From NCBI GenBank assembly GCA_034780895.1, contig JAUZTB010000083.1:8338999-8402998 (forward strand): DNA of 64,000 bases, given 5' to 3'. The notes under the pieces were generated by a model. It saw only the letters and a program-made list of their open reading frames with translations. It did not search any database and was not told the origin of the DNA. The stretch's first letter is position 1. Each line of letters opens with the position of its first letter. Source of the DNA: Rhynchobatus australiae. Taxonomy: Eukaryota. This document shows positions 4,368-63,789 of the stretch, one piece after another. Position numbers and translations under genes: made by a program.

Positions 4368-5546
4368 TGATTATTGTCACGTGTATAGAGGTACAGTGAA
4401 AATCTTTGTTTTGCATGCCATCCATACAGATCACTTCATTGTATCAGTGTATTGAAGTAGTATGGAAGAGCAATAACAATGCAGAATAAAATGTTACAGA
4501 GAAAGTGCTGGCAGACAATAAGGTGCAAGACTATGTCGAGGTAGATTCTGAAGTCAAGGATCTATCTTATTGTACTAGGGGACCATTCAATAGTCTTATA
4601 CCAGCGGGATAGAAGCTTGGTGGTATGTCCTTTCAGGCTTTTGTATCTTTTGCCCGATGGGAGGGGGGAGGAGCGAAAAATTTTGGGGTGGGCTACTTTG
4701 ATTATGTTGGCTACTTTGCCGAGGCAGCAAGAAGTGTGGACAACAGTTCAAGGAGGGAAGGCTGGTTTCTATGATGTGCTGAACTGTGTCCACAACTCTA
4801 CAGTTTTTTGCAGTCTCAGGCAGAGCAGTTGTCATAACAAGTTGTGATGTGTGATGCATCTAGGTAGGATACTTTTTACGGTGCAGTAATAAAAATTGGT
4901 GTGCGTCAAAGGGGACATGCCAAATTTCTTTAGCCGCCTGAGGAAGCAGAGGCACTGGTGTGCTTTCTTGGCTGTGGCCTCTACGTGGTTGGACCAGGAC
5001 AGGCTATTGGTGATGTTCACTCCGAGGAACTTGAAGCTCTCGACCTCAGCACAGCTGATACAAACAGCCCACCTTCCTGAAGTCAATGATCAGCTCTTTT
5101 GTTTTGCTGACATTGAGGGAAAGGTTGTTGTTATGACACCATGTCACTAAGCTCTGTGACTCATTGCTGTTTGAGATGCAGCCTATTACAGTGGTGTCAT
5201 CTGCAAACTTGTAGATGGAGATAGAGCAGTATCTGGCCACACAGTCTTGAGTGTATAGGGAGTAAAGTAAGGAGCTGAGGATAGAGCCTTGTGAGGCATC
5301 AGTGTTGAGGATAATTGTGGTGGAGGTGTTGTTCCCTATCCTTACTGATTGTGGCCTGATGGTCAGGAAGTCAAAGATCCAGTTGCAAAGAGAGGTGTTG
5401 AGTTCCAGCTCGAGTTTGGAGATGAGCTTGCTTGGAATTATAGTATTGAAGGCAGAGCTGTAGTCAATAAACAGTAGTCTAATGTAGGTGTCTTTATTGT
5501 TCAGATGCTCCACAGATGAGTGTAGGACCAGGGAGATGGCGTCCAT
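4368..5546 (-). mobile_element. Rex1/Babar-type LINE, RT plus C-terminal domain and 3' UTR, 5'-truncated
   Basis: ORF 5046-5546 DAISLVLH...[19 protein letters not shown]...KFADDTT (RT core). ORF 4832-5086 FKFLGVNITNSLSWSNH...FLRRLKKFG. Confidence 0.92.
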
Positions 5547-6030
5547 TTTAAACCTTCTTCAATAGTGCTAGCAAACCTCCCAGCAAGGGTGTTGGTCCCA
5601 CTCTGGTTAAGTTGCAACCTGTACAGGTCCCATCTTCCCCACAAATGGTTCCAATGATGCAGGAACCTAATGCCTATCTTCCTGCACCATCCCTTCAGCT
5701 ATGCATTTATCTGACCTATTCTTCTATACTCACTAGCTCATGGCATCAGAAGCAATCCAGAGATTACAACCTTTGAAGTCCTGTGTTTTAAATGGCCATC
5801 TAGCTCCCTAACCTCACATTGAACTACCTCATCCCATCTATTTATGTCACTGGTACATGTAGCATGACCTCTAGCTGTTCTCCCTCCTCTTTCAGAATCT
5901 CCTGAAGCCACCCTGGGCCTTCCTTGATCCTAGCACCATGGAGACAGCATACCAACCTCTAGTTTCTTTTGCAGCCATAGAAACAACTATCTACCACCTT
6001 TACAATAGAATCCTCTACCACTATTGCTCT
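5547..6030 (-). mobile_element. CR1 ORF1 fragment (SGNH esterase-like domain)
   Basis: Reverse complement of ~5550-5618 translates [23 protein letters not shown], the recalled end of CR1 ORF1. A decayed GDSIV-like start lies near 6000-6030. Confidence 0.8.
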
Positions 6031-9825: not shown

Positions 9826-10864
9826 GGATTTCTGCTTTGAGATTATGTTTGTCTGGATGGAGTTGGGCTTAAATCCGTAGTCTGATTTGGAATAATTATT
9901 TTGCATTTCTTAGAAGTTTCTCTTTTCTTTGGTGTAACTAGCACTTAAATTTAAAAAAATATTTTGGTACTTTCATGGGTCTGCAGCTTTGTATAATGAT
10001 TCCTGGTTATATTGAAAAGGGGACTTTAAAGAATTAATGCCAAGAATGCTGTGGATGGAAAATGCAATTTGATCAGATATCAGTGCCATTCTGAATGTAG
10101 GGTTCAATATTGGCAATATTACCAATAATTTTGTACTTCCTGCATTTGAGGCATGTACTTTTCCTCTAAACTATTGAATTGTGGTTAACGGCCTTTAAAA
10201 CCATTGGAGCAGTTTACAGGAATGTCATGTGATTGCTCTCATCAAGCACAGAATTTAGCATCTGAGTTGGTTATTGGGTCAAACTGAAGGAAGAGGTTTG
10301 TAGAGAAGAAACTGAGATATCGTTTCAAAATCAGTGCATAACCCATTCTTTCAAAAATTTCCTGGAAGGAGCCCTGATTATGAAATTGTACAATTGTTCT
10401 TTTACCCAAATTCACAGCCAATGGAGTTTTTATAGCTTTGGGTTTAAGCCGTAGATTTGACATAGATTTGGCAGTCCTCAGGCAGGAATTGTTGAGCATT
10501 TCTTACACTGTTCAATCTGTTCCACAAAATAAGACTAGCTGCTTTTTGTTAGTATAACTGAAAAGTTTTCTTCACCCTCCAAACCCCACAAATACTGATT
10601 TCTTTCTGGAATATAGGACCACTTTTCAATTAGCCTTAAGTGCCTTCACTTTGAGTAGAGCATTCATAGTGCTGTATGACATTGGTAGGTGCCTTTATGC
10701 TGGTATAGCCTGTGGAAACTGGTTTCCAGCCAGCACTTTAGTTTGGAAATTTCTGGTTGAAGTTTGTGGAACAATGAGATGATGCAAAACCAGGTTTAGT
10801 CAGTACACTTTATGATGTTATTGAAAGTTGATTGATATGTAGACTAATTGATGATAAAGATACT

Positions 10865-11445
10865 TACCAACTCACACCAATCTAGTTCACTTGTTACCCC
10901 TATGCTTGCTGATGTACATTGGTTACTGGAAAACACCTCAGCTTCAGAGTTCTCATCGTCGATTTCACATTCCTGCATGGCTCCATCCCTTCAACTCTCT
11001 GTAATCTTATCTAATTCTATAACCCACCAAATTTATTTTTATTCATTTAACAGATAGGGATGAGCTGTGTGGCAATCAGAACTGCCCTTCTTCAAGGTGG
11101 TGATGAGTCACCTGCACCACAGCAGTCTTTAATATGTAGGTGCTCCAACAGCACAGTTGGGTAGGGATGTCCACTATTTCAATGGAGTGACAATGAAATA
11201 AAAGTCGTTGTATTTCCAAATTAAGGTGTGTTTTGGAGGGATATTTCCAGGTGGTCATGCTTCCATGCACTTGCTACCCTTGTCATTCTTGGTTGTGGAT
11301 TTGGGAGGTATTTTGCCTTCAATTACTAAGACCCTGCTTGGGAATTCTATCCTTAAAAACTCGCTGTCCTTCTATCCATTTCTCTCCTTTTAGAATGCTT
11401 GTTAAACCTACCTCCTTGACAAAGCTTATGGCCACCCATGCTTCT
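10865..11445 (+). mobile_element. L2 LINE 3' region, interrupted at ~11030-11310
   Basis: ttacccctatgcttgctgatgtacattggtta (ITP.L..LHWL motif) on the left. gccttca...ggaattc...aaacctacctccttgacaaagctt on the right. Confidence 0.65.
11030..11310 (-). mobile_element. 3' fragment of a second CR1/L2-group LINE family
   Basis: tgccctt...aaggtggtgatgag...tatttccaa...caggtggtcatgcttccatgcacttgctacccttgtc. Appears to be the same family as 54700-55090. Confidence 0.6.
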
Positions 11446-11999
11446 GTGATTCAGAATCAAATTATATACTTCTGTGAATAGCGATAGGTTCAAGTTCTTT
11501 AGCGGGAACACTAGTAAACAACATTTGACATGGGGCATGCTGCTGAAAGAATAGATGTGTGTAATGTTACACTAAAATATTTCATCTTTCACATATCTCT
11601 GACTGAAATCCAAATCCATGTTAACTTCAGACCTGACCACTTTAATGCTTTCTTGGCCATTCTTCCACTTTGTTCCATCCATAAACTTCAGCTCACCAGT
11701 TCTTACTGCGTGTATCGTGGTCTGTTACCAAACCTTTTTCCTTCATTATTCACTGACCAGCCTTGCATTTGGTGATATGCATCTGCTTCTGATTCACTAA
11801 CATATTCGTTTATATGCTCATGTAAAAATCTCTCTGTATGTCTTTATTCTTCCCTTTCTCCATGATAATCTTTGGCTTTCCAACCCTCAAAAAACTCTGG
11901 ATTCTTCACCTCTGTANNNNNNNNNNNNNNNNNNNNNNNNNNNNNNNNNNNNNNNNNNNNNNNNNNNNNNNCCCCACCTCTGTCTCCTCATTTAATTAT

Positions 12000-12850
12000 C
12001 AAATTTCTACACTGATTCTGTCAAATGACTGAAACAACTCTTTCAAGTCATGTGACATTAGATTGTGACTATGGAAGCCATTCTTCTTGGGCTATCTCTA
12101 GTCTTTAACATAGTTAACTAGAGTACCTTTAGCACCTCTTCACCATTTTCCACCATTGCCGGGTAACTGCACCTTTCAGTTGCAGTCAGGGAATTGATTG
12201 CACCTTCTTATAGGTCTACTCTGTTGTTTTCCCAGGATTGATCATTGTTTCCCCTCTTTTTAAAGTCTTTTTACTGCTACTTAGAAACCACCTCTGGTTC
12301 CATGTGTGCTGATGGGTCCCAGGTTTACCTTACCACCACCCCTCTCATCCATTGTCCAGCTCTGTATGCTCATCATTTTCCTCCAAACAAATGTTGGGAA
12401 GATCAAAGCTAGTGGCTTTGATTCCTGAAAAAAGAACTTTGTTTCTCAGCTACGAATTCCAATCCTTTCCTTGGCAGTTTTCTGAAAATGAGCCAGGCTA
12501 TTCACAATGCTGGTATCATGTTTGATCACTAGATGAGCTTCTGTCCACATATAGATTTATTATTCTTAACACTTCCACCTCTGTAATTTTGTGTGACTCT
12601 TATACTTACCCTAGCTTATCAGCTGATGAAAATGTCTCTGCTTTTTTTACTAGTCTATTCCAAAGTGCTCCCGACCAAATTCCCATGTTCTGTCTGCCAC
12701 AAAACAATATCAAATCTGGGCTCAATGTCCTCATATCCAGAATACGATTTACGCAGTGCACCTCTTAGTGCTCGCTATTCTGCTTAGGCTCCTCGCAAAA
12801 CAACAACCTTATTTTAAAATTCCCATTGTGGACTGGTTCCAGATTTTGTC
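12000..12850 (+). mobile_element. Highly decayed L2 LINE fragment
   Basis: Pyrimidine-rich, ending in cacctcttagtgctcgct...ggctcc...ttttaaaattc, resembling the L2 ORF2 C-terminal region. Confidence 0.4.
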
Positions 12851-14156: not shown

Positions 14157-14640
14157 TCAGATGAGTTTATTGTCATATACACCAGGGTGCAATAAATACA
14201 GTGATGAGCACAATGTAGTGGTGCAATCTGAACTAGTGCAAAAAGAAATGATAGGTGACAATAACGGAATAACCAAGAGAGGTAGAATTAAGAGTCCAAG
14301 AACGTGGCAGCACCAGCACTGTAGAAGTTTTGACAGAATCCTCGTAGACAAGCCAAATCTTCTCAGACACCTAAGAAGGTACATATGCTGATGTGCTTTC
14401 TTGATTACTGCATCAGTATGAAGGGACCAAGTGAAGTTGCTGGAGATATGGATGACTAGGTCAACCATCTCTACAGCAGCTCCTTTTAATGAGGATGCAG
14501 CTGTGTTCACAACCCTTCACCCTCCACTTCTTTAGGTCAACAATCAGCTCATGCGTCTTGTTGACATTAAGTGTTAAGGGCTAGGTTGTTGTTCTGAAAC
14601 AAGGTTTGCAGTTTCTTTCCTGTACTCCATCTCATCATTG
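14157..14640 (-). mobile_element. Rex1/Babar-type LINE fragment
   Basis: ORF 14157-14510 HISSNFTWSLHTDAVIKKAHQHMYLLRCLRRFGLS. Tail gagtttattgtcat. Confidence 0.82.
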
Positions 14641-18511: not shown

Positions 18512-18925
18512 AACATCAGGCTCTGTACCTCCTGCTGGATGGTAGCTGCAAGAAGATGACATGGCCTGGATTGGGANNNNNNNNNNNNNNNNNNNNNNNN
18601 NNNNNNNNNNNNNNNNNNNNNNNNNCCGATGGTGGGGAGGGATGTGCCCGTGATGTATTGGGCTGAGTCCACTACTCTCTGCAGCTTCTTATGTTCCTGT
18701 GCATTCGAATTGCCATCCCAGACCATGATGCAACCAGTCAGGATACCTTCAACGATACATCTGTTTGGTGAAATGCCAAACCTCCTTAACCTTCTAAGAA
18801 AGTAAAAGTACTGGCATACCTTCCTTGTGATTGCATCTATGTACTGGGCCCAGGGCAGGCCATACAATATCTTAATGCCCAGGAGTTTAAAGCTGCTGTC
18901 TTTCTCCACTGCCGATCCCCCAATG
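18512..18925 (-). mobile_element. Rex1/Babar-type LINE fragment
   Basis: ORF 18475-18909 FKLLG...YFLRRLRRFG...ILTGCIMVWDGN...KKLQRVVDSAQYITG. Confidence 0.88.
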
Positions 18926-19439
18926 TTGGGCCGAAGGACCTGTTCCTGTGCTGATTCTGTTGTATTGATTTATCCCAGTCAGCCCTTGGCTTAGTTTATT
19001 TCAAATATGGTAGATTTTACTCTTGAGGTGCAACAAGTGTTTTGATAACTTCACAACAAAATAGTTACTAATTCACATGGATTGCTTTCTCAAGGTTGAA
19101 AATAACATGGTTTCCATAATGGATTGTATCAGTATTTCTATTTTCATGTCCAATACTGTTAGGTGCAAAGTGTGGTTCTCTCTGCTCTGCTTAAAATGCA
19201 TCAGCCACAAATTCAGAACAGCACTTCCTAATTCATCAGTGTAGCAGTTTTTTTAAAGTTATAAGCCAGCTATCCTATTGCAATGAATTTGTCATTTACT
19301 GGTGAAGTTGGACGAGATTTGTACTGAGCCTGATTTGACTCTGAAGTAGTCTTTTCACAAAGGGTTCTTCCAAGCAGAAGACAGATGAGAGTTAGAAACT
19401 TAGTGCAGGAGGAAGCCAGAAAAAGTGTTTTTATACCCC

Positions 19440-33382: not shown

Positions 33383-35210
33383 GGATTTTAGGTAGGAAGG
33401 TTTCTGGGGGGCGAATCAGGAACAAAAAAAGGTTCGAATTTGCCAGGTAGACTTTTCCGAGGTGGGGAAAATGCTTTTCAATGTTTTTTGGCTTTGAAAT
33501 GTTGGAGCTCGACGAGGTTACAGGCAGAGTGAGTTGTTTTTTATATCAGAGTCTTTTGGTAGTGGTCACAGTGCATGCTCAGGGCCATCCGCATCAGGGT
33601 TTAAGAAGGGGGTAAAAAGGCTATTTTCGGGTTCGAAAATAATTTCTTTTTGTCATGTTTATGATTGTTGAAGTTTAAAGTAGATTATCTGTACAAAAAG
33701 GAGTATAAATTTTCACCATTTGATAATTTTTCAGGCTTTTTCGAATCCTCACTGTTTTTGCACCCTTACTGTGCAGCCTGATGCAACTCACTAGCTCCAT
33801 TGCTGCTGACGTTTCAAGATTTTTTTCCCGAAAATATTCAGAATAATTCATAGGGGGTTTATTGTAGCAGAATGATAAAACATGGCATTTGGGGGAAAAA
33901 TATACTTTTTATTGCAGTATTTCTTTCTGACGACTCCTTGGGGGGAAGAAAGCTTTATTAGTGAAAAACATGTTTAATTTTCGTTCAATTAAATTATAAT
34001 GAATATACCTTTTGGGTGCATTAGTGAAATCTGTTAGAATCGTAACCTTAATAAAGGCNNNNNNNNNNNNNNNNNNNNNNNNNNNNNNNNNNNNNNNNNN
34101 NNNNNNNNNNNNNNNNNNNNNNNNNNNNNNNNNNNNNNNNNNNNNNNNNNNNNNNNNNATCGTAACCTTAATAAAGGCCTAAACTGGAGTTTTTTTAAAT
34201 TAGAAAAATTGGGACTTGACTGGTACAAGGCATAAATAAGTGAGAAAGATTTCTGATTTATATGTAAAGAGAATGAAAGTTTGGGACTGATTATTAAATA
34301 TCGTTTTTTTAAAAAATAGATTAATATTGGACATTAGCTAAAAATTACAGAATTTTGTTGGGGCGTGGCAGTTCCTTAAATACTGCATTATAACTTAGAA
34401 TTGTATTGTAGGTTAATTTTAATGAGTAATTTCATTAGAATTACCTGCATAACTTGAATTTCAATCGTTCTTGGGAATAATTTAAAGTTTTTTCCCTCAA
34501 TTTTGTATTTTTTTCTCTCCTCTCCAAAAAGGACTTGTTTTCAATGCATTTTTCGTATTTAATTTTAACCAACAATATAAAAACGAATGAATATTTACAG
34601 TCGCCTGGCCAATAGTAACTTAACGTTCTTTTTGAGGCGTTTATTTGAGGCTATATTTTTGGCTTGAGTGTTGGATGCATAAAGTGACTTATGATAAGGC
34701 AGACATTTGCTGAACCGCCATTTTGTCTAAAGCAGCAGATCTGCCAGGTTCAGCAGACCTCTAGCTCTATCTACCCTGTTAGTGCACAAGATTAGTATGC
34801 TGTTTTAAAAAGTCGTATTTTTTAATTTATAATTTTTTTGCCAATTTTTTTTAATCCTAGAAGCTGCTTGTGTCTTTTTCCATTTTGTTTCGCTATTGGG
34901 ATATTTTTCATCTTGGTGCAATATGTTTTGAGTAGAAAAATTGTCCGATTGATCGATTAATGTTGATGAATAACTATGTTGAATTTATTTGCCTTTTTTA
35001 TTGCTCTGTTTCAGTAGGTGAAATGGTGTTTTTATGTCTGGTTTGTATTGTCGACTAATCCACATTGTTTAAACTTTATTTTAACCTTCATTTCTGATTT
35101 TTGTATTTTAAATTGCGTTTAGGTAACAAAATCACTGAAAATTAACATCTGTTTTTCTTTCTTCCTCATAGTGCTCTTCCTAGTACTTCAGTATTTGAAT
35201 ATACAGGTGG
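33383..35210 (+). promoter_or_regulatory. Candidate promoter domain: AT-rich, CpG-retaining, TE-free, with CCAAT (34609-34613) and YY1 (34715-34724) motifs
   Basis: CpG density visibly higher than the flanks (ttcgaa x3, ctcgacg, ttcggg, ccgattgatcgat, gtcgac). ggccaatag and ccgccatttt present. Several + strand 5' splice-site motifs. Confidence 0.55.
35172..35206 (+). other. Candidate 35-nt non-coding exon
   Basis: Branch-like ttaac, long pyrimidine tract tctgtttttctttcttcctcatag, donor CAG|gtgggt. Confidence 0.5.
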
Positions 35211-35714
35211 GTCCCTTCCATCTTTCTCTTATTAGTAATTTGTAATTAAAGTGGAAAAATATTTAACAATTGCCAAAACTACCCTTTTCACATTTGCTTT
35301 TCCTATAAGTGCCGTTTTATAATCATTGTAAGTTCTGGATCATCTTTGAGTGTATTTTTTCCCCTCCGAATTGACATCTATTTTTCCTCCTGCATGTTAA
35401 GCATTTGCCACAATTGTTCAAAATAATTATTTAATCCTGAACCTGTTGCTAAACTTGGTCTTCTTTTGATTTTAATCCTGTGATTCATAAATTTTAATCA
35501 AAGTACAGGAGGTTCTAACTCCATGTGAATATTCATTCACTGTTCTGTTCAGTAGGTAACATTTAATAACTTAAAAGTCTTGCACTACATCCTAAAAGTG
35601 CAACTTTCTGGGGAGAAAATAATCCAAAGTTTCTTATAACTTTCCTCCTAAAGAGTAGTGCTAGAAGGAATGGTCTCATCAACTGTATTTGACAAATAAT
35701 TTATTGATGTCACA

Positions 35715-49059: not shown

Positions 49060-49870
49060 AGTGTACTTGTACAGTGCCCATAACATGGTGAAATCTGCCT
49101 TGGGGCTTCATAGAAATGTTATCCAACAAAATAGACCCTGCCCTATGTGGGATGACCAAATGCTTGGAAGAAAAGAAAGATGGTGGGGAGGTTAAGAATT
49201 CCACAACTTGGGGCCTTGGCTGCTGAATTTGTGGCCATCACCATTGGAGCAATAAAATTGGGCTGCTCAAGAACTCAGAATTGGAGGTTTACAGGCCTGT
49301 TTCAGAAGGATTGTGGGCCTGGAAGACATTACAAAGACTGGCAAGGCTGTAGAGAGTTCTGAAGGCACAGTATTTGTGTACTTAGTGCCTAAAGTAGATC
49401 AGTAAACAACTTTGTTGTATGTGCACTTGCTCACACAGAGCTATGCACTTTGCTGTAAAGGGAAGGATGGCCAGGAGCTCATTGGATTCGAGTTCAGAAA
49501 TAAGAGATAGAAAAGGTTTCAGCAGCAGATGAGCAGAGCTGGGAACAAACTTGGCCAATGATGTAGTGGGTATGAGGCTGGAAGTTCATCCTTGGGTCAG
49601 ATACACCACTGAGATTTCAAACAGTCTGCTTCAACATCATAGTTGCAAGAGGCAGGGGTGGAATCGGGGAAAGTGGTTGCAGTGCAAACCAAAAACAATG
49701 GCTTTGAACCTCTCAGTATTCAAGTGTGTCATCGGTGCATGTGTAGAAGCAGATGATGAGATTTTGCATGATGCTGTAAGAAATCGAGGAGCATCTGGGG
49801 AGTAATCCTTGGAGATACTGAAGGTGATGACAGTAGAGTGGAAAGATCAACCACTGCAGGTGATCATCTG
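49060..49870 (-). mobile_element. L2 LINE fragment, decayed
   Basis: gggcttcatagaaatgttatc...gatgaccaaatgcttgg...gaattccacaacttggggccttggctgctgaa...ggtttcagcagcagatgagc. Same family as 1815-2372. Confidence 0.65.
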
Positions 49871-57526: not shown

Positions 57527-57834
57527 GTAAGTAAAATATAAATAATTTTCATATCCAGCTGGTCAAAATTTGTAGGCAGTAGTCAGGAAACCACTGTCAG
57601 CTTGAGATAAGGTTGACAATATTGTTCCTTTCCCAATTCTGGTAAAACTCTATCCCATTTCTTTTTCTCCAGTCTGTATTCCTCACTATTGAGAGATGGG
57701 GAAAAGAACAGAAATTTCTGAGGAAAAAAAACATGGCATGCAATAGTTTGCTTTTGTGCAGTTTGATTCCTGGTTCACAACCTCTAGAGGATCTGATACC
57801 ACCTTAAGATCCTGTGCCAGGGTCCTTATTACCA

Positions 57835-57912
57835 GTCAAAGTTAAGTTTATTGTCATATGCACAGCTGCAATGAAAAACTTACTTGTAGCACCATCGTAG
57901 GCACATACAGAA
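57835..57912 (-). mobile_element. Rex-type LINE tail fragment
   Basis: aagttaagtttattgtcatatgcaca...tgcaatgaaaaacttacttgtagca. Confidence 0.6.
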
Positions 57913-58627
57913 AATGTATTTGCACAGCACAAGGACTGGAATATTTGAAGGTGAGTTGGTGAAGCAAATTGGCTAAGGAGCCAGATAAATCTCTGAATGC
58001 ACTGTTCTCTTGCCACACTTACTCCGGATTAGCTGCCAGGGGGAGGGCTCTCTTGTCCACATTGGTCATTCAGTGGGGTCCTGTGTTTGCTTCCAATTCC
58101 ACCATTGCTCATGGGAATTTAAAAAAGTCCCTCCCCATTTCAGGTGTTGAATTTTAGAGTGTACAGACTGTGAATAGCACTATAACTTAGTTCAAAAAGT
58201 GATTAATGTAGGCTGCAATCCCCTGCCGCAATTTACCCAGATCATTTCTTGGGATTCCTACTGCAAGTATTCAAAAAAAAAATCTGCTTTTGTTGCCTGG
58301 GATATACCATGGGTCCACTCTTGATTTCTATTATTAAAGCTGTGCTTGAAGCTGGGGAAGGGAAAATATTGGTGCAGTAGTTTTATTTAAATGGGGCCTG
58401 TTCGTTTGCTATAAAGAAGCTAGGGACACAGTGTGAATAACAGCACTCTTCTCTTGTGGTGGACATCTCCTGGCTGCACAGAGGTAATGGGCGCAGCAAT
58501 TAATGAGAAATAATTATCACTCCATGAACTGTTGTTAAATGTTATTTTCCCTGTTTGTTTCAGAGTGACCTGCTTGTAAAGGGAATTGCTGGATTCTCAA
58601 TCTCTGCATATCCTTCATCCTAAAGTA

Positions 58628-58712
58628 CCTGCATTCACCACAGCAGCACATCATGGTTTGCATGCTTGTACTAAATATCCAAACCATTGTGTGCTGTTAT
58701 GGGGAGTGTGGG
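58628..58712 (+). ncRNA. MIR497: microRNA precursor, miR-15 family, miR-497-like (Mir-15-P1d); mature 5p ~58641-58662 CAGCAGCACAUCAUGGUUUGCA
   Basis: AGCAGCA seed. 5p pairs with 3p caaaccattgtgtgctgttatg (58680-58701) with a 2-nt overhang, and the lower stem extends to 58628/58712. The 5' C, the 3p arm and the flanks (cctgc...; gag.gtggg) resemble human pre-miR-497 as recalled. Family call is firm; paralogue call is inferred. Confidence 0.9.
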
Positions 58713-60830
58713 AAAATCTGGCCAAGAGTGGGACTAAAAGGTAGTTTTTGGGGTTTGTATGGAATGACAATGCTTTCCACCCTACAAGTGCCTTTCTCCC
58801 TAATTGCTATCTAGTTTAAAAAAGACTTTGTTTCAAGCATTATGGATATCATACTGCTCAGGAATCCACCCAATTTATGTAACATTGAATTTTCTCTCAT
58901 ATTTAGACTTTTTCATTCTTATTCCATATCTTCCTCACACTCCTCTCTAATTTTTAACATTTTAATATCATTAGCAATTCTGAACTTTTGTTTCTTCTTG
59001 GCACCTTTTAACTATCCTTGAATTCTTGTTGCATTGACAGTAAGAATCACTATTCTAACTTTTATTCTTAACTCATTGTCTCTCAGCATCTCATGTCCAT
59101 GGACTGCCTTAATTCTTGGCAGGTTTTCAGAACCCATTTAACACATTTAAACTTAATCTTTGCACTTTTCACTTGTGCTAGTTTTAAAAATAACTAGATT
59201 TCTAATTCGGTATTGGTATTGGTTTGCCAGAATTGGTACTGGCCAGAATAATGTTGTTTCTTAATCTATCTTGATTCTCACTGCAAACTTAGATTGTTTG
59301 TTGGGCTCCAGATTCCATTTTCTAAGGCTCCATAGCATTTATTGCACAAATTTCCCCAGGACTTGAATAATAAAAGGCCAATGTAATTGTAATCCACATA
59401 GAGAATGATGCACAGGAAACAATGGAACCCATGGCTTTATTTTACCTATAAATCTGACACTGTTTCTGTTGGTACTGCCTCTGGTAACATGAGAGAGCAG
59501 AAGTTTCTTGCATAGAAGGGGGACATGACTCAAGTTGTTTCTCCCAACCTTGTCCTCCATCTTATTACAGGCCTCTCCTGCTGATCCTATGGTGGTGAGG
59601 TATTCAGTGCTCTTGAGAGTTTCTGTATTGGACATGTGTCTCATTTAGACGGTGCTTGCACAATGTTCCATGCTTGCACTTAGTCAATAAATTATTCTCT
59701 AATCTCACCTTTAATTTTAATTAAGAGATGAACTCTGGGGTTCTGTGATTTGCCTCTGCCTTGTCATTCTGTTAGAGAATGCATTCCAATATTATGTGTC
59801 ATAAAATTTGCAAAGAGTCAGATTCTACCCAGCTGCATGTATGGGTTTTTCTGCTCATCAGTTCTTAGGCCATTTTCTGTGATGTCCCTCCACAACTGAA
59901 GTAAGACAGAGGTCTGAACTGCAGCTACAGTCCCACTGCCCCTATATGAAATTGGCTGGCAGCATTCACTAAAGAAGAAAGGTTAAGAATAGAGGACTGT
60001 GTTTGTTGAAAATGAAAGGGGAAGAATGGTTTCACTTGACAAATCTAAGTGCATTGTAAATTTGTCCCAACTGCTGCTTTTCCTCTATTTTATGCTTTAA
60101 AGTTACTGGCTAGAAATAGCTTCAGCGCACAAGTGTTGTGTGGGTTCCCCATGTGAAAAATCTCCCACATGATTTGCAAAGGGCTCTTCTGTGAGTAGGA
60201 CCACATTGGACAGTTGTATCCCTGTCTGTACTGCTGAAGGTGGCAGGTGGTGTTCACTCCTCCCATTCCAGTTAAGAATCACTGTACAAAAAGAATGCAC
60301 ATTAGACCATTCCATGACAGAATCAAAAATGGCAAAGGATGGTGTAAAGACTCAGTGCCTTGACAGTTTCCAGCACTGACGCCAAGGAAATGTGCTGATT
60401 CTTATGGAAAACAATTACCACCCCATTTGCATTTGCTGGAACTTCTTCCTTTGGTTTATTTCCAACCATCCCAAAGATAGGAAACAAATCTGGACTGAGC
60501 AACTTTCACCCAGGTCACGTCATCAACAGAAAATTCTCATGGTGTTCACAAATGTCAAGAAATCCACACTTAGATATTAGAAAGAGAGACCCAAAGTTGG
60601 AGGGTGCCTGTCATGCATGAGATCCATCTGCCCACAGAAAGTAACCACTTCTTTTACCCATACTCTACCAGAAAGTTAGCCCAGTTGGGTCAACAGTAGA
60701 TTTTGTAAGCTTCCTGTGTTGTATGTGAAGATGATTCACACTGAAAGGTTTGCTCTGCCCTTAGAAGTAATGCTGCTGGGTGCAGGGTTGTAGTGCACTT
60801 AGTGTGGGAAGTGTGTGTCATCTGCAGCGC

Positions 60831-60979
60831 TATATATAAACACACACCTTCATCGTCTATGCAGCATGTGCTGCTCTCATTTTAGTTTCACCCTGAAGAG
60901 CATCCAGATCTGCACCACGTTATAAACACAAGCTGATGCCAAGATGGAGACGTATAGTTACAGTGTGGAGTATGTAAGT
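60831..60979 (+). promoter_or_regulatory. Candidate TATA/MEF2-like site followed by a short exon ending in gtaagt
   Basis: ctatatataaa (60830-60840), aagATGg at 60944, 10 codons METYSYSVEY, donor TAT|gtaagt at 60974. Confidence 0.3.
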
Positions 60980-61872
60980 ACATCATTAGCTTTATGCAGT
61001 GTCTGCTGTGTGTATTCCCATATATAAAAACAGCTGAGATGTCTTGAGTTTGCACCTTGGCTCCATGTGTTATGTGTGGTTTTTGCTACACTCTAATTAG
61101 CTTAAAGCTTTGACCAGGTATCTGAACCCCAATTGAATACAACTGTAATTGATTAACAGCTTGAAGCATCAATTGGGTGGCAGTGCAGTCTACAGTGCAG
61201 GAGGTGAGAGATGACTCACTGACTTGAATCTTGAGGTGATTGTATGGTAATTAAAAGGATGCAATTTTCTTGATGAACTTTATCAGAAAATTGTGTAATG
61301 GAAAATTTTCTAATATATTTTAGCTCAATTATCATTGCAAATTGTATGATAACTTTTCAGTTCATTTTTGCTACTGCTTTACTAGTTTAAGCCCACTAGT
61401 ATGTATCTGTGTCCATATTAAAGCAAGATGGACTGCAACTTGTGGTCCAAGTGAGATCTTTAATTTTGGCTGTATTCACACACACTCCCTCTGTTTCTGA
61501 ATGATCACAGTTCGCAACTGATCTGCAGTTTTAGGTTNNNNNNNNNNTGGACCTGGTTTCTAATCTGTTTGGAAAGTTGCTGAAAAATCAAATGTGTATT
61601 TTAAACTGAATCTCCTCCCTTAAATTGTGTGCCAGTAAGTTTTAATGAAGTACTAATTGCTTAAGTTAAAAACAACAAATCAAAAACAACTCTTTTCCTT
61701 TAAGTGGTGAAGCATTTTAACTTGTGGGTTTGTGTGTGTGTGTAATACACACTCATGAACAAATGTTTAAAATCCATGTTATAAAGCTGCAAGATAATGC
61801 AGTGATCTGTGTGGTCAGATTTTTGGGTGTGGGATTCCGAGGTGCTGGGTGTGGAGGATAAAGGAATGCACT

Positions 61873-61958
61873 GTCGACTCTGCTTTAGCAGCACATAAAT
61901 ATTGGCAGGTTCCAACCTTTTTGCCAATATTGTGTGTGCTGCTCCAATATGGTCCGAC
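61873..61958 (+). ncRNA. MIR195: microRNA precursor, miR-15/16 family, miR-195-like (Mir-15-P2d); mature 5p ~61886-61907 UAGCAGCACAUAAAUAUUGGCA
   Basis: 5p pairs with 3p ccaatattgtgtgtgctgctcc (61924-61945), which resembles miR-195-3p. Basal UG at -14 (61872-61873) and CNNC (cagc, 61964-61967). Lies downstream of the miR-497-like hairpin, as in the known cluster order. Confidence 0.92.
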
Positions 61959-63789
61959 GCAAGCAGCGGATCACAGAAGGATCTCCTGGTTAATGTGCTG
62001 ACACTATTTCCCTCTCAATATTGCTGTGTAAGATCCTTTTCATGTGAAAAATGTACATTATGATGTTGTGGGTTTTGTGTTTGACGTCCAAATGCAATAA
62101 GAAAAATAAAACCAAACTCTTTATAATAAGAATGACGACTCTGGTTTTCTTTTTGGGTTGGTTTACTGCCCTTCATATTCTTTGTGACCTGTTACAGCAT
62201 TCACACCAGGCTGCACTGGTTACTTTTAGGCACCCTGGCACTTATTCAGACATGGATGAGATGGTGCTCATTAGTTTGAATGCAGGCTGGCCTCAGGAAA
62301 ATATAACCAAGAAATCTTGATTGCATTGAATGAGTGGAACCTGTCATCTAGTCAGCCATACCACCACCCCCACCCCCCCTAACTCGTCATCTCAGAAAAT
62401 CCTCTGAAGGAAATGGTGCCTCTTATGGATTGACAATCTTAATCAATTTTGGAAGTCATTTAAGTAAGTGCAGAAATCCTTAACTTTATGACAGATGCTC
62501 ACCACTGCTATTCGGAATTTACTCTGATGCTGGAATCCATTGAAGGAACACCAACTTCCTGCAGTTATGCTGGGGTGTCTGCCCAGTGAACCTGCACCAG
62601 TTACAGCAGAGAACATGGTTCTGAGGAAGAGGTGAATTTCAGGTCATTTATATTTTTTAAATTGAGTCATTTTTAATGTACTTGTAATATTTTTATTNNN
62701 NNNNNNCAGTGTATAACTTAAAAAAGGTGTCCAAGAACTATTAAACACTTCCATCTGACATTCAAGTCTTGACAGCAGTACGTCTGGGGTGGAGTTAACT
62801 GGCAGTTAAGGCATTTCTAAGGGCAGAGATTGCTATTTTCAGCAAGAAAGCCCCTCACAGAACAGGGCCTCACCAATTGGGTCAGCTTTGGAGAACAAGT
62901 TAGTGTTGCAGGTAAATGTGGGCAGGGGAACAGGGAGTACAGGTGGCTCACTGAACCATCCCACTAACAAATATTGGCTCATGGGCCGTGTGTTATACAT
63001 CACTGCCATAAACTTTCCATCGGGCTTTTCTGCCACTAAACTGCTTTTCCTTATTTATCCTCAAACCCCTTAATGATGTTGAGTAACTCTATTGCTTAAG
63101 CTTCTCTACTCTGAGGAAACAACATTCATTTCTCTGCATTACTGATTATTGTATCACCCTTTGTGCTACATCTCCTTTCCTAGTACTCAGAATTGTCCAT
63201 GATGCATATTCTGGTCTAACTTCAGTCTCAAAAATTTAAAAGAATCTGTGCTCTAGGTCCTGATGTTTCTCAGTTTCTTGTCTCCCCTGTAAGATCACCA
63301 AAAACAGCATTCTTTGCATAAATGCTGATAACATCCAGCTCTTCTAGTCTGCACCCATCCGCAGAATCTAAATTGTCACACTGCTTGCCCAATATGCAGA
63401 CTGTATGAGCAGAAACTTCCTTCAGTGCTGGAAAGACCAAAATCTTTGGTCCCTGTGACTCTCCACTCCCTGTCTGAGCTCATCTTTGCTATAAATTTGA
63501 GCCTGCTGTGCATGTGGGCTTTGTTTCTGAATCATTGCTTCTACCTCCATAGCATAGGCCTCCACTTACTTGCTGCTGAATCCCTCCCACCACTTTGCCA
63601 TTGTTAAATGTAGATTTGATATTACATTTCTGGCTGCTTTCCCCATAAAGCTGTCCTCTATGAAGTTGTGGTCAGTGTCAAGACAAGCAGCAGGAGGTTA
63701 TTCTGTCCATACTAGCTTCCGAGTGAGCAGTCCCATCTCCATATTCTCTCACCTGTGCATCTCCTCCCCTTTGACTCTTTGCCACTTAA

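Follow-up and report, generated by a model that had tools for sequence, protein, structure and literature searches.

The hairpins of human miR-497 and miR-195 lie a few hundred bp apart. The pair is co-covered by ESTs and has C17orf49 antisense downstream (PMC2632650). In the curated table of Peterson et al. (2022, PMC8789304), Mir-15 clusters a to d are assigned to the last common gnathostome, human and gar, with d also in zebrafish, and the rows of elephant shark and coelacanth hold only a to c. The catshark has a row in the alignment of the same paper and, since it belongs to the same curated set, the curated clusters may already include a d from an elasmobranch. The three elephant shark pairs, found on scaffolds 1, 2 and 344, have spacings between 163 and 196 bp (163, 177 and 196 bp); two are intergenic (59 and 151 kb) and the third lies in an intron, beginning 87 nt from the intron start (PMC3964593). 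Medaka pair spacings are approximately 180, 247 and 443 bp (PMC8321539), and zebrafish 15b and 457a are found within 3 kb (PMC2427041). One review regards miR-195/497 as specific to mammals and locates 424/503 between PLAC1 and HPRT (PMC6394552). The names P1d/P2d stand for 424/503 in PMC6848104, and in the 2021 Peterson preprint P2c is the eutherian seed-changed gene, which is taken here as miR-503; the paralogue letters used below follow the later usage of the preprint, not PMC6848104.

No description of shark miR-497/195 was found in the literature searched, the reach of which was limited and did not extend to MirGeneDB, so this is not proof that the locus is unannotated. The main texts of FishmiRNA, MirMachine and MirGeneDB 3.0 contained no information on shark Mir-15 paralogues, and the searched passages of PMC11976272, PMC13622530, PMC8826519, PMC11701709 and the MirMachine preprint contributed nothing decisive.

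A miR-15/16-family pair in Rhynchobatus australiae

The window, i.e. the whole stretch of 64,000 nt from R. australiae that was analysed, contains two hairpins which are a genuine, conserved miR-15/16-family pair:

58628..58712, + strand: hairpin 1, Mir-15-P1-type pre-miRNA with lower stem, likeliest the miR-497 (P1d) orthologue (Rfam, z score, pairing)
58641..58662, + strand: predicted mature 5p arm of hairpin 1, first base C (from the sequence, ends predicted)
58680..58701, + strand: predicted 3p (star) arm of hairpin 1 (pairing table and 2-nt overhang rule)
61873..61957, + strand: hairpin 2, Mir-15-P2-type pre-miRNA, likeliest the miR-195 (P2d) orthologue (Rfam, z score, motifs)
61886..61907, + strand: predicted mature 5p arm of hairpin 2, seed AGCAGCA (from the sequence)
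61924..61946, + strand: predicted 3p (star) arm of hairpin 2, CC tail as in miR-195-3p (arms compared by hand)

An earlier note on this DNA had claimed two hairpins with AGCAGCA seeds on the same strand, miR-15-type and then miR-16-type, and this was confirmed by seeds, folds and Rfam. The sequence scan of the window placed the seeds from 58642 and 61887 on the + strand, at nt 2-8 of the predicted 5p arm in both hairpins, and the sequence agrees with the 5′ ends proposed earlier, 58641 and 61886. The P1-type hairpin precedes the P2-type hairpin. The seed alone is no proof of a microRNA, because AGCAGCA occurs 35 times in the 64-kb window, compared to 10.6 times expected from dinucleotide shuffles. 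This excess over positions 1-64000 likely reflects general CAG/CTG richness together with repeats.

Folded as 101-nt stretches, hairpins 1 and 2 had z scores of -5.66 and -5.71, respectively, with none of 200 shuffles equally stable in either case, and they held ranks 1 and 2 by minimum free energy among 5,950 windows of 85 nt. The Rfam score was higher on the + than on the - strand for both. Hairpin 2 reached 60.1 bits with the mir-15 model, above the gathering score of 57.3, and only 18.5 bits with mir-503. Hairpin 1 scored highest with mir-497 (56.9 bits, gathering 62), followed by mir-15 (55.8 bits, gathering 57.3), mir-15_2 (41.6 bits) and mir-322 (33.3 bits), all four below their own gathering cut-offs; the E value with the family model was 1.8e-12, yet the score was 1.5 bits short of the gathering score.

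Apart from the pair, Rfam revealed no microRNA in the window; a search at E ≤ 0.5 over positions 1-54100 gave three weak matches, all below gathering, and no miR-542/450-like neighbours were found in the 54-64 kb region. A weak match to SNORD39/55 at 49748-49828 (+) had 28.4 bits (gathering 35, E 0.036) and contains C- and D-box-like words; it is probably due to chance, a C/D snoRNA in an intron of a non-coding host being possible. Scans of metagenomes for vertebrate copies gave no matches in one and, in the other, a single unrelated chance match to the pattern, at 10001-10047 of L001 within a long bacterial ORF (9901-12375, minus strand).

Spacing, surroundings and candidate host transcript

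The hairpins are separated by the following feature:

58713..61872, no strand: spacer of 3,160 nt, with single-copy-like depth and without high-copy repeat or coding exon

The distance from start to start is 3,245 nt, which bears out the spacing of about 3.2 kb given in the earlier note and is the widest among the comparators found. The spacer includes a 10-N gap at 61538-61547. Contigs of run X1, from the source organism, cover 58394-60028 and 61577-62543, and thus both hairpins, with 0 differences. A contig of run X2, from a second, related organism, spans 60232-61743 and has 11 letters fewer at the 10-N gap. Because this contig bridges the gap, no extra sequence is hidden there and the 3.2-kb spacing is not an assembly artefact.

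The depth of X1 contigs over the spacer was 6-12, compared to more than 20,000 at a repeat of the 57.7-58.05 kb region. The spacer is thus not the product of a recent high-copy insertion, since its depth is single-copy-like, and a recent high-copy or transposon insertion was ruled out as the origin of the wide spacing. The spacing is likely the result of old drift in a non-coding host. The very high-copy short repeat itself lies at 57834-57907, approximately 720 nt 5′ of hairpin 1, the contig depth there exceeding 20,000 in X1 and X2 alike, and a stretch resembling it is visible near 14160. For the spacer, no self-repeat was found in the window.

Pfam scans were carried out on 589 ORFs, consisting of 449 ORFs from the whole window, free of N and 48 or more amino acids long, and 140 ORFs of 24-47 amino acids from 57.1-64 kb. 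No match to SMC4 or another cellular gene was obtained among the 589 ORFs, very short exons being able to escape such a scan, and the absence of visible SMC4 exons claimed previously was upheld in that no SMC-type match appeared. Likewise, no C17orf49, RNASEK or BCL6B exon was found in the window, and at least 58 kb 5′ of the pair is without detectable coding exons.

The only Pfam matches reaching the cut-off were LINE relics, with RVT_1 at 5049-5558 on the minus strand and three ALKBH8_N-type matches. The broken relics, with RVT_1 and an ALKBH8_N/DUF1891-type domain, lie at 4835-5558, 14160-14516 and 18626-18969, all on the minus strand. Among the best 120 of 921 matches to the RVT_1 relic, the nearest named relative was the sawfish Pristis pectinata (71 % identity), and named teleosts had at most 62 % identity, which speaks weakly for the cartilaginous fish, here a ray, of the earlier note. 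Five Pfam matches under the cut-off (DarA_C, fn2, Kazal_1, zf-Vps39_C and Rpr2) were dismissed as chance, and none of 11 candidate exons from a crude splice-site finder was gene-like. A pyrimidine tract ending in CAG, noticed by eye at 58543-58564 (+), approximately 64 nt before hairpin 1, is a possible splice acceptor with a score under the crude threshold.

Two features may mark the limits of a host transcript:

33400..35400, no strand: CpG-richer stretch, candidate host promoter (CpG observed/expected 0.52-0.77, window median 0.154)
62105..62110, + strand: AATAAA, candidate host poly(A) signal (one of nine AATAAA/ATTAAA hexamers in 55-64 kb)

The CpG-richer stretch, approximately 24 kb upstream of the pair, is the only promoter-like region in the window and contains 11 of the 14 highest-CpG 500-nt windows. 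It carries what we take to be a GC box (34360), a CCAAT box (34607) and a YY1-like motif (34715), and may start either a lncRNA hosting the microRNAs or a divergent transcript. The TA skew was 0.063 before the candidate promoter and 0.071 after it, without a switch, and because the base skew is unchanged there, the link from promoter to hairpins is conjectural. A single Pol II non-coding host transcript from the + strand would carry both hairpins, possibly with its start in the CpG-rich region (33.4-35.4 kb) and the AATAAA of position 62105 as its poly(A) signal. Further AATAAA hexamers occur at 59369 and 59686, between the hairpins.

Which paralogue the pair represents

The best reading of the pair, probable although unproven, is that this ray locus is orthologous to the miR-497~195 (Mir-15 d) cluster. 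The margins of the d call are small. To compare the arms, human sequences were taken from two reviews (PMC8499475, PMC8942954) and the predicted ray arms were aligned to them by hand. The 5p arm of hairpin 1 matched miR-15b at 19 of 21 positions, miR-15a at 18/21, and miR-497 and miR-424 each at 17/21, and its 3p arm matched 497-3p at 16/22, 15b-3p at 15/22, 15a-3p at 13/22 and 424-3p at 14/21. With both arms taken together miR-15b (34/43) and miR-497 (33/43) tied, followed by miR-15a (31/43) and miR-424 (31/42). The 5′ C of hairpin 1 is common to miR-497 and miR-424, and the G3.U wobble is common to miR-497 only; the C1.A mismatch is as in miR-497. The mir-497 model comes first for hairpin 1 because the flanks raise its score.

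For hairpin 2 the 5p arm matched miR-195-5p and miR-16-5p equally (20/21 each) and miR-503-5p at 12/21. Over 22 nt of the 3p arm, identities were 20/22 with 195-3p (ungapped), 17/22 with 16-2-3p (gapped) and 16/22 with 16-1-3p, giving totals of 40/43 for miR-195 (ungapped), 37/43 for miR-16-2 (gapped) and 36/43 for miR-16-1. The lead of miR-195 over miR-16 is thus due to the 3p arm, including the CC at its end. The totals for both hairpins against the human arms were 73/86 for d, 71/86 for b and 67/86 for a.

Medaka arms from the PMC8321539 supplement were also compared by hand. By matching the orthology table with the counts of Peterson et al., medaka 15b-1/457a is the d cluster. Hairpin 1 had 35/44 identities to b, 34/44 to d and 28/44 to a, and hairpin 2 had 38/45 to b, 36/45 to a and 32/45 to d, which does not favour d; the CC tail, however, is present in just one of the three P2 hairpins of medaka, mir-457a. 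The earlier statement that arms and flanks fit 497/195 thus stood in part: hairpin 2 is nearest to miR-195 and hairpin 1 is best on mir-497, but hairpin 1 ties with miR-15b and medaka does not favour d. Beyond the arms, a d copy is to be expected in the ray because gar, zebrafish and human have d, and a wide pair fits the missing fourth cluster, because the three elephant shark pairs are compact and the elephant shark row lacks only d.

The surroundings speak against d. The gene-free upstream region of at least 58 kb resembles the elephant shark intergenic pairs (59 and 151 kb, PMC3964593), and human MIR497HG, with C17orf49 antisense downstream and BCL6B close upstream, is hemmed in by genes, unlike this window. 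That the pair is instead the c ohnologue (miR-15c/16c, in mammals miR-424/503 at the H19X locus), with the same processing, is unlikely. The 5′ C start is shared with miR-424, the unplaced Rfam family mir-15_2 matches hairpin 1, and the long gene-free upstream region is like that on elephant shark scaffold 344 (151 kb), the assignment of which to c was inferred here. The comparison with c covered mammalian 424/503, which are derived forms and so no fair stand-in for c as a whole. Within this comparison the Rfam scores of mir-322 on hairpin 1 and mir-503 on hairpin 2, the 31/42 identities to the 424 arms and the 12/21 to 503-5p all argue against c, as do the elephant shark pairs, all of which are less than 200 bp apart. 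In the 3′ portion of the 5p arm, the mir-503 consensus and hairpin 2 also differ at one position, with C in the former and U in the latter; this position is homoplastic, with C also in medaka 457a and rabbit 16a.

Assignment of the pair to the a (15a/16-1, DLEU2) or b (15b/16-2, SMC4) cluster is very unlikely, even though the 5p arm of hairpin 1 is closest to miR-15b, the medaka identities are highest for b, and the position of the promoter-like stretch, 24 kb upstream and CpG-rich, is reminiscent of DLEU2. The a-type arms had the lowest total, the 3p tails of 16-1 and 16-2 are unlike that of hairpin 2, the a and b pairs are compact in both elephant shark and medaka, and no SMC4-type Pfam match was present in nearby ORFs. 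The b cluster in particular is unlikely because no SMC4 exon was seen and the intronic elephant shark pair lies only 87 nt into its intron. There is hardly any probability that the pair includes a decaying, unexpressed remnant (a single hairpin or both), or that the hairpins belong to two separate transcripts rather than one cluster. The d cluster is loss-prone, given that it is missing from the elephant shark and coelacanth rows, hairpin 1 is without basal UG and CNNC motifs, and two AATAAA hexamers (59369 and 59686) fall within the spacer. Against this, the seeds are intact, the stems are near-perfect and arm identity to human is 77-93 % across the gnathostome split. The comparison with X2, which is limited to hairpin 1 as X2 has no cover over 61744-62134, gave 5 substitutions in the contig over hairpin 1, none of the 4 that could be located being inside the hairpin, which is too few to demonstrate constraint, the divergence being too low for significance. 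The pair is most likely the expected ohnologue of a curated family, unusual only in the distance between its hairpins.

Predicted processing, and comparison with known clusters

Drosha/DGCR8 cropping is predicted at 58641/58701 and 61886/61946, after which Dicer would cleave the hairpins, the 5p arms would be loaded into Argonaute and mRNAs with UGCUGCU sites would be repressed. Established targets of the miR-15 family are found in the cell cycle and apoptosis. A basal UG (-14/-13) and a CNNC motif (+18) accompany hairpin 2, and both are missing from hairpin 1. In compact mammalian clusters, miR-15a/16-1 and miR-497/195, the P2 hairpin reportedly assists its P1 neighbour, which depends on it for processing, and such help may not operate in the ray pair because the hairpins are 3.2 kb apart. 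The lower stem of hairpin 1 is paired at 12 of 13 positions, and since it is almost continuous over 13 bp, Drosha could cut hairpin 1 alone. It is conceivable, although doubtful, that in a ray d cluster the tenfold wider spacing freed miR-497 from neighbour-assisted processing; if true, this would be a natural test of the co-evolution of cluster assistance and spacing. The 3.2-kb spacing is in itself a modest comparative datum for the processing of microRNA clusters.

If the d call holds, miR-497/195 is recorded in a batoid, the curated table (PMC8789304) having none for elephant shark and coelacanth, and the view that miR-195/497 is mammal-specific (PMC6394552) is contradicted. The gain is small, because d is already present in gar, zebrafish and the reconstructed gnathostome ancestor, and the catshark is in the curated set.

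With human and mouse miR-497~195 (MIR497HG; MirGeneDB 2.1 Mir-15-P1d/P2d), the ray pair shares the order, strand, AGCAGCA seeds and non-coding setting, the 5′ C and G3.U wobble of the P1 hairpin, and 40 of 43 positions of the P2 arms. It differs in its spacing of 3,245 nt, in a P1 5p arm that is 15b-like at positions 11-13, and in that no C17orf49, RNASEK or BCL6B exon adjoins it in the window. Mammalian miR-424(322)/503, which belongs with miR-15c/16c to the c cluster (H19X), has the 5′ C in P1 and a lncRNA host in common with it, whereas the Rfam and arm matches, for which only the mammalian forms were compared, are low. The elephant shark a, b and c pairs, compared by their coordinates, come from a cartilaginous fish too and share family and arrangement with the ray pair, two of them being intergenic, but they are 163-196 bp apart and elephant shark has no annotated d. 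The teleost and gar mir-15b-1/mir-457a is likewise a P1-P2 pair, with 20/22 identities between medaka 15b-1 5p and hairpin 1 and the CC tail in P2, whereas in medaka the hairpins are approximately 440 bp apart and 457a has diverged (32/45).
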